A stretch of 64,000 nucleotides of DNA from Eledone cirrhosa (taxonomy: Eukaryota), in contig OZ024741.1 in assembly GCA_964016885.1 (NCBI GenBank), forward strand, positions 338,396,001-338,460,000. The letters run 5' to 3'. The notes under the pieces are model-generated. The model ran no database searches, was not told where the DNA came from, and worked only from the letters and a program-made list of their open reading frames with translations. This document shows positions 17,341-18,734 of this stretch, piece after piece. The stretch's first letter is position 1, and each line of letters begins with the position of its first letter. Made by a program: the position numbers and the translations under genes.

Positions 17341-17766
17341 TCCTGTGTCAGTGTTGAACAAAAAGGTGACGTGGTTGCCTAAACACTGTACGGCGTAATT
17401 CAGGCTGTTTGTTTGTTTACAAACAAACAAACCGAGCATTATAATAAATGTTCGGTAAACTGATACGTGCATGTATATATGTGTGCCTGTATGTATATAT
17501 ATACATGCTACTGTACGTCTGTATACATATATGTATGTACGTATACATACATACTTACATATATATATATATATATACATATTATATATATATATATATA
17601 TATATAAATTGGAATAAATGCTCTGAAATAGCGATATATATGTGAATATAGACATAGAATATTCGAAAATATTCTGTATGTTTATAATAAACATTTTGAA
17701 GACCTAATCGCTATAGAATAGAATACGTCACGTATTACAATTAGATTCTCGATAAAAGCAAGGGAA

Positions 17767-17809
17767 GTAATCTACGCGTTTCATTCTTGTTAGAAATCAT
17801 CAGGACTAC
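17767..17809 (-). ncRNA. Type I hammerhead ribozyme (family 1, inverted unit; duplicate at 61624-61666)
   Basis: Exact reverse complement of 18221-18263. Confidence 0.88.
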
Positions 17810-18220
17810 ATATCCAGTGCTTTTATCGAGAATGACACAGCTAGAGACTTATAGAATACTTAGCTGTGTACAGGAACTGGATAAAAGCACTGGATATGTA
17901 GTCCTGATGATTTCTAACAAGAATTTCTAACAAGAATGAAACGCGTAGATTACTTCCCTTGCTTTTATCGAGAATCTAATTGTAATACGTGACGTATTCT
18001 ATTCTATAGCGATTAGGTCTTCAAAATGTTTATTATAAACATACAGAATATTTTCGAATATTCTATGTCTATATTCACATATATATCGCTATTTCAGAGC
18101 ATTTATTCCAATTTCTAATTTCTGCCGGACCGGCAACCGCTCTTTCAAACCAGTTCCTGTACACAGCTAAGTATTCTATAAGTCTCTAGCTGTGTCATTC
18201 TCGATAAAAGCACTGGATAT

Positions 18221-18263
18221 GTAGTCCTGATGATTTCTAACAAGAATGAAACGCGTAGATTAC
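18221..18263 (+). ncRNA. Type I hammerhead ribozyme (family 1)
   Basis: GTAGTC-CTGATGA-T-TTCT-AACA-AGAA-T-GAAA-CGCG-TA-GATTAC. Stem I continues past an internal loop into ATTCTCGATAAAAGCA/TGCTTTTATCGAGAAT. Confidence 0.9.
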
Positions 18264-18734
18264 TTCCCTTGCTTTTATCGAGAATCTAATTGTAATACGT
18301 GACGTATTCTATTCTATAGCGATTAGGTCTTCAAAATGTTTATTATAAACATACAGAATATTTTCGAATATTCTATGTCTATATTCACATATATATATAT
18401 ATATATATATATATATATATATATATATATATATATATATATATATATATATATATATATATATATATATATATATATATATATATATATATATATATAT
18501 ATATATATATATATATATATATATATATATATATATATACATATTATATATATATATATACATATTATATATATATATATATATATATATATATATATAT
18601 ATATATATATATATATATATATATATATTCATTAAAACAACAGAATGCAAGACAATTTGGTGCATCATCGTTTACCAACCAGAACAACCAGTTCTACTCG
18701 TTGCTAAACAACCTAATATAGATTATATATATAT

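Follow-up and report, generated by a model that had tools for sequence, protein, structure and literature searches.

Animal non-LTR retrozymes are described as non-coding tandem repeats whose multimeric transcripts are cleaved into monomers that become circular (PMC7229834), and a dimer-type arrangement has been described for most animal type I hammerheads (PMC4209133). According to a 2020 review, no motif points to a retrozyme helper (PMC7761336); Li et al. (2026) tied retrozymes to Penelope-like elements (PLEs) by co-occurrence and by similarity to PLE terminal repeats (pLTRs), and favoured local tandem growth of the arrays (10.64898/2026.07.22.740005). PLE insertions carry an inverted 5' copy, a 30–40-bp tail at one end and a bias towards (TA)n (Craig et al., PMC8557442). 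Purified PLE protein nicks and extends both strands and has two start sites inside the RNA, next to each other, which mark the limits of the tail; uncleaved, unprocessed RNA is the preferred template of the anole PLE in vitro, and the hammerhead of this PLE is dispensable there (Frangieh et al., PMC11167929). How retrozymes re-enter genomes, and how PLEs produce tandem, inverted and tailed insertions, are stated to be open in these papers (10.64898/2026.07.22.740005, PMC8557442, PMC11167929).

Here we describe an insertion in a 64,000-nucleotide stretch (the window) of the 3.0-Gb genome of Eledone cirrhosa. On balance, we consider it probable that the insertion is a young non-coding hammerhead retrozyme, likely mobilized by a PLE, and that a single RNA of unit length, probably a circle, likely served as the template for both of its arms. 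The class of element is known; the value lies in the insertion footprint, which provides unusually clear genomic evidence on how retrozymes move. Identity as a PLE-mobilized retroelement was absent from an earlier note on this DNA. The interval described there, 17606–18390, is not a plain tandem: forward units occupy 17880–18396, but 17606–17880 is an inverted arm that the note had missed.

The repeat unit is 310 bases long (G+C 106/310) and non-coding, and the predicted cut motif recurs with the same spacing at 17948 and 18258, which confirms the GATTAC start at 18258 given in the earlier note. The only protein-coding frames that overlap the element are microsatellite-derived, and there is no LTR pair: the element ends are internal unit positions. 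The two arms (Table 1) overlap by 1 base at 17880. The locus holds one complete monomer only, and the hammerhead that borders it upstream has a duplication in stem II; this monomer is identical to four monomers at 61805–63044. The flanks of this locus are pure TA and give no measure of target duplication. The window belongs to a 44-kb segmental repeat with at least four copies (C2: 338.32–338.46 Mb; about 99–99.5% identity), a number that could partly be an assembly effect. Two segmental copies carry the insertion and two others, outside the window, lack it; the empty site (L213) is a plain (TA)n tract of 264 bp.

Table 1. Coordinates of the insertion and its parts within the window
Feature	Position	Strand	Details
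(TA)n target tract, left part	17564–17605		Empty-site copy L213 has one uninterrupted 264-bp tract
Inverted arm, 0.89 unit	17606–17880	−	Outer end at unit position 167 (B end, tailed); inner end at 203
Complete type I hammerhead of the inverted arm	17767–17809	−	Predicted cut between 17773 and 17772
Forward arm, 1.67 units	17880–18396	+	From unit position 256 (inner end) to 130–139 (outer end; A end, tail-less)
First forward hammerhead	17898–17953	+	13-bp duplication in stem II (17910–17937); predicted cut after 17947
Sole complete 310-nt monomer, cut site to cut site	17948–18257	+	34% GC
Hairpin domain (unit 59–145)	18006–18092	+	Also present in the 320-nt sister family; has compensatory changes; continues into the A site
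35-nt 'tail', A site (unit 130) to B site (unit 165)	18078–18112	+	Inferred reverse-transcription starts; compare PMC11167929
Second forward hammerhead with extended stem I	18197–18285	+	Core at 18227; predicted cut after 18257
(TA)n target tract, right part	18389–18628		Microhomology overlap with the A end
Same insertion in the next segmental-repeat copy	61463–63183		Same ends and junction; forward arm of 4.67 units

Several other elements lie in the same window. Positions 18750–19690 hold a broken 3' portion of an abundant PLE, inserted into the same (TA)n tract; it has a minimal hammerhead-like motif near 19507 and a GIY-YIG fragment at 18933–19103, which lies past the (TA)n as an insertion of its own. 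We rejected this neighbour as a parent of the retrozyme, as its ends differ and it is also present at the empty site. A second hammerhead family, with a period of about 441, occupies 16278–17563 and 60135–61420, with an older copy at 31704–32485; it has the core CUGACGA and a palindromic ACUAGU, and its insertions in (TA)n likewise have two arms; one end extends about 58 bases past the other, and the B-like end reads TATTCCATT. Hammerhead-like motifs with a long stem II at 16060–16135 and, on the reverse strand, 21520–21600 probably lie in other PLE terminal repeats or retrozymes. Two tandem LINE-type frames of 1,075 and 697 amino acids (1838–7437, with a duplicate near 45800–51400) encode an APE endonuclease, a reverse transcriptase (RT) and a PHD finger after the RT.

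The hammerhead has an intact core (CUGAUGA and GAAA), A15.1–U16.1 pair and GUA triplet. Stem I consists of 6 bp (18221–18226 with 18258–18263 in the second forward copy), followed by the CTGGATAT/TTCCCT internal loop and a 16-bp helix (18197–18212 with 18270–18285); the GUA site, the loop and the closing helix are as first described. Stem II has 4 bp on a U-U base, and because its first pair is U-U the motif is not fully canonical. The 'CGCG stem III' of the earlier note does not form in the monomer, where stem III is a single A-U pair capped by a palindromic CGCG loop. In the energy model, intramolecular closure of this pair carries a penalty of about 5 kcal/mol (−3.1 to +2.1); pairing of the palindromic ACGCGU with a second copy, in contrast, yields −7.5 kcal/mol. 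The ribozyme, which looks weak in this model, is thus predicted to be active only as a dimer and should need two adjacent copies. It is present on one polarity of the unit only. In 20,000 dinucleotide-shuffled versions of the unit, a hammerhead descriptor found no match in either strand. An Rfam search at the gathering score gave no matches, nor did a search of viral contigs.

The linear monomer folds at −72.5 kcal/mol, better than shuffles (z = −4.4), and folding in circular mode, the check suggested at the outset, strengthens this (z = −5.1). The description 'highly self-complementary' is nevertheless too strong: pairing is moderate (57–60%, about 58%, compared with 54–55% in shuffles) and the fold is branched, so a rod-like structure was rejected. 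Four of the five hairpins listed earlier occur in the minimum-energy fold; the fifth, ATGTTTA/TAAACAT, is absent there and has a compensatory pair in a 320-nt sister family. Matching contigs of unknown kind were found in four sequencing runs (X2 at very high depth; X1, X3 and X6 with one 340-base contig each). The 340-base contigs are uninformative on form because a tandem repeat or a circle would yield the same, and we draw no evidence from these runs.

Judged by its sequence, the element is an animal non-LTR retrozyme, and it shows the following sequence-level features of this previously known class: a type I hammerhead in each tandem unit, many dispersed copies from dimers to multimers, a unit within 150–450 bp, a GC content below 50% and no coding frame.

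Counts with exact sequence patterns indicate a large family. A 37-base ribozyme stretch has 4,541 copies in the genome (control, 0), 1,285 junctions join unit positions 130–139 to (TA)n (A type) and 680 on the forward strand join positions 165–167 to (TA)n (B type; the reverse-strand count is inflated by overlapping matches), which implies roughly 1,300 or more insertions. Among the matches listed on C1 (75 A and 74 B ends), all 47 paired ends are A–B or B–A. For closer analysis, we sampled 40 paired loci, 40/51 unpaired ends and 9 loci through the ribozyme pattern, leaving out two duplicates (W2 and L093), one locus with a gap (L033), the misaligned short arms of L045 and L057, and L035–L036, two insertions split across two sequence pieces, both of them A–B. 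The 86 classified loci comprise 75 complete two-armed, 10 one-armed and 1 that is cut off.

Each of the 75 complete two-armed loci has one A end (115–140) and one B end (155–175), although insertions with other ends are under-counted because most loci were sampled through A or B ends. Outer ends adjoin (TA)3 or more in 147 of 150 cases. Most arms (119/150) exceed 1.5 units, with means of 3.9 units for A arms and 5.2 for B arms and a maximum of 27. Inner junctions are spread over the whole unit: 32 of 74 overlap by 1–5 bases, 9 are blunt, 24 contain extra bases and 9 are hairpin-ambiguous. Run-off at the ribozyme cut was rejected as their origin, with 2 of 148 inner ends at the cut site and about 6 expected if uniform. 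At L037, 272 unrelated bases are caught between both arms. Target duplications are 15 bp at L034 and up to 26–34 at L105, L057 and L032; most flanks are uninformative pure (TA)n. Single-unit changes number only 4.2 per 10,000 bases, and the family is therefore very young.

These ends, 35 bases apart, reproduce the two-start-site 'tail' footprint of PLEs, and the insertions share with PLEs the inverted copy at the 5' side, the one-ended 30–40-nt tail and the (TA)n target. The footprint strongly supports mobilization by a PLE, and supports a circular monomer as the template moderately. A candidate helper is the family of L223, a PLE with RT and GIY-YIG domains and a CxxxxCxxC motif before the endonuclease, which is a Neptune-like trait (PMC8557442). 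Its left end is inverted and tail-less and its right end is tailed and lies in (TA)n. The tail end reads CATTTTCCAAT, compared with CATTTATTCCAAT in the 310-base unit; only about 18 bases of tail are shared, and the candidate was first spotted by eye. Its tail scores best among 574 TA-abutting end clusters (score 26; 99th percentile 16) in a comparison with a filter that drops ends rich in dinucleotide runs. This PLE has 783 exact tail copies, 17 of 20 sampled adjoin (TA)n, and its 13 compared copies (L223 and L258–L269) are only 97.8–99.1% identical, older than the retrozyme burst. Family members usually have an upstream frame and a separate 796-residue frame (796 in 7 of 12 other copies); the single 1,025-aa frame of L223, which lacks a segment found in the 796-residue frames, is probably not the intact form. 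The terminal repeat of this PLE contains a long microsatellite.

Variation within the family bears on whether the RNA itself is under selection. Fixed substitutions keep pairs more often than they break them (9:5), compared with 9:36 for single-unit changes (p = 0.006). The 12 core positions have 0 of 26 fixed and 4 of 91 single changes, which alone is not significant (p = 0.57), and the 9 of 26 fixed changes that fall in the ribozyme are at N7, loop II, the stem II base and stem I wobbles, all outside the core. On the ribozyme strand, A>G accounts for 9/26 fixed and 7/91 single changes (p = 0.0015, post hoc); either selection for G-U pairs or A-to-I editing would suffice to explain this excess, and the RNA template may be A-to-I edited before copying. 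The 320-nt sister family (its motif occurs 2,180 times in the genome; an older copy lies at 22240–22740) has unit positions 59–235 in common at 75% and a different hammerhead with a longer stem III. Across 23 sequences, 3 of 19 named pairs have changed on both sides and 96.8% of cells pair, figures that lean in favour of the structure because it was derived from the same 23 sequences. A separate short element (L226:485, L230:7445, L232:4266 and L216:340) has a near-identical hammerhead core and stem II and a long stem III, and is at times inverted in (TA)n.

The clearest evidence on the template comes from haplotypes. In 70 of 73 loci, one fixed haplotype is common to the two arms, compared with a mean of 11.8 and a maximum of 20 in 1,000 shuffles. 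Of 28 fixed variants, 13 occur at a single locus only, where they are present in every unit, some across more than 20 units. Shared haplotypes and private fixed variants together imply a bottleneck of a single unit, which was then amplified into both arms. A circle gives both directly, which supports a single-unit template, likely a circle. No single-unit change was found at the cut junction in 745 passes, disfavouring repeated jumping on a linear monomer. The earlier note had proposed that cleavage of a multimeric transcript would release 310-nt monomers able to circularize, and this is partly supported: the genomic evidence fits such a cycle of transcription, cleavage and circles, each hypothetical here, because fixed variants avoid the catalytic core and keep pairing and because both arms behave as copies of one unit-length template.

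Alternatively, the same element and PLE may usually rely on an uncleaved linear multimer, either a source-array transcript or an RNA-to-RNA copy, that is copied in register, with circles as side products or rare. At 3 of 73 loci (L062, L074 and L112), the variants of the two arms do match in their order when counted from the outer end, and at L074 the haplotype switches on both arms exactly two units from the outer end; a multimeric template or a concerted switch would account for these loci. There is a weak correlation between arm lengths (Spearman 0.29, p = 0.011). The preference of the anole PLE for unprocessed RNA in vitro (PMC11167929) and the apparent weakness of the ribozyme would also suit this explanation. 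However, of 56 single-unit variants in template covered by both arms, 50 are unshared and 6 are in register, and private variants are fixed over up to 24 units in both arms of L080. The 30 distinct haplotypes among 72 loci need repeated single-unit bottlenecks and amplification, for which linear copying alone is insufficient, and selection on the ribozyme region implies that cleavage matters for spread. We therefore regard a linear multimer as an unlikely usual template.

It is also conceivable, but very improbable, that the copy inserted by a PLE is short and expands into an array only afterwards, as DNA, through slippage, unequal exchange and gene conversion, in the satellite-like route proposed previously (10.64898/2026.07.22.740005). 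The forward arm of one insertion differs by three units between the two copies in the window (1.67 compared with 4.67), from which it follows that DNA-level length change (or assembly error) occurs, and variants are scattered and repeated inside single arms at L037 and L051. Yet locus–variant cases are mostly fixed (114) or single (96), and only 10 are intermediate; the two inverted arms are each multimeric and have haplotypes in common, and the family, at its rate of single-unit change, is too young for such homogenization.

Less probable still is that the unit is an orphaned terminal repeat of an autonomous PLE and the loci are 5'-truncated PLE insertions. The layout equals that of PLE insertions as far as they are described in PMC8557442, and Xenopus retrozymes resemble pLTRs (10.64898/2026.07.22.740005). 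However, no arm reaches coding sequence and no RT and GIY-YIG frame is joined to the unit in any of the 86 loci, the arms are pure 310-base repeats of up to 27 units, and neither a homologous pLTR nor whole-unit homology was found among the 81 PLE loci compared (60 GIY-YIG loci and 21 longer PLE stretches). Finally, a DNA fold-back or rolling-circle DNA element with the hammerhead as a relic, for which the many hairpins and inverted structure might speak, is highly implausible given variation that is strand-specific and fits G-U pairing, changes at the variable core position N7 with none in the core, and ends that are internal, asymmetric and PLE-like.

Within the PLE-mobilized retrozyme reading, we lean, with some reserve, towards two-ended rolling-circle reverse transcription, in which a PLE dimer on one 310-nt circle would use sites 35 nt apart and the cDNAs would be joined head to head. 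The array would be transcribed, and adjacent hammerheads would pair through ACGCGU and excise 310-nt monomers. A host ligase would close these, and the lone, weak ribozyme would leave the circle uncut. The PLE RT-endonuclease, probably as a dimer, would bind the hairpin domain at unit 59–165 and nick both (TA)n strands; one DNA end would prime at about 130 and the other at about 165, each rolling round the template 0.2 to 27 times. End joining, with microhomology slight or absent, would then unite the far ends of both cDNAs. A minority of insertions would likely stem from multimeric templates, and arrays could change length later at the DNA level.

If this reading is true, the family provides direct genomic evidence that retrozymes move through circles with PLE enzymes, and PLE tail and inversion are explained as one strict rule. 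It would also imply that the RNA is modular, with an RT-recruiting domain retained and the ribozyme exchanged between the 310-nt and 320-nt families. The family supplies more than 1,000 near-pristine products of one reaction, defined start sites and a candidate helper, with which the circle-template model can be tested directly in the in vitro PLE assay that already exists. Developers of RNA-templated insertion tools would also have an interest in a short RNA module that steers multimeric insertion to microsatellites.

Viroids and HDV-like circular RNAs resemble the unit in size, in being structured non-coding RNA and in having a hammerhead, whereas the 310-base unit is genome-integrated, branched and carries its ribozyme on one polarity only; a viroid-like or HDV-like identity was rejected, with neither ribozymes on both polarities nor a rod-like fold found in the unit. 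Newt satellite 2 and dimer-cleaving hammerheads share a tandem unit of about 330 bp, a short palindromic helix III and dimer cleavage (PMC4209133, PMC7229834). In contrast, the 310-base family, the cleavage of which is only predicted, is dispersed and two-armed with retrotransposition ends; the two-armed dispersal and the few intermediate variants led us to reject classical satellite DNA, for which long arrays in one direction, homogenized by unequal exchange, would be expected.

The closest relatives in kind are the animal non-LTR retrozymes of coral, mussel and axolotl (PMC7229834) and of Xenopus and other vertebrates (10.64898/2026.07.22.740005), which are described as having low-GC non-coding tandem units, thousands of dispersed copies, a proposed circle intermediate and a proposed PLE helper. 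In PMC7229834, axolotl HHR_Amex1 has a one-pair stem III with a palindromic tetraloop and HHR_Amex2 a U-U stem II base, both as in the 310-base unit. Invertebrate retrozyme hammerheads, as described there, mostly work as monomers, unlike that of the 310-base unit, which is predicted to depend on dimers. We found no description of two-armed A–B retrozyme insertions, (TA)n targeting or arm-shared haplotypes in the open literature searched. In manner of insertion, the family is most like PLEs (Anolis Poseidon, PMC11167929; Neptune and Naiad, PMC8557442), for which the same papers describe the inverted 5' copy, the one-ended 30–40-nt tail, AT-rich or (TA)n targets, two internal start sites and extension of both strands. 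It differs from them in having no coding frame and long, purely multimeric arms, and its A–B pairing is strict, whereas in vitro the strands showed no difference in start site (PMC11167929).
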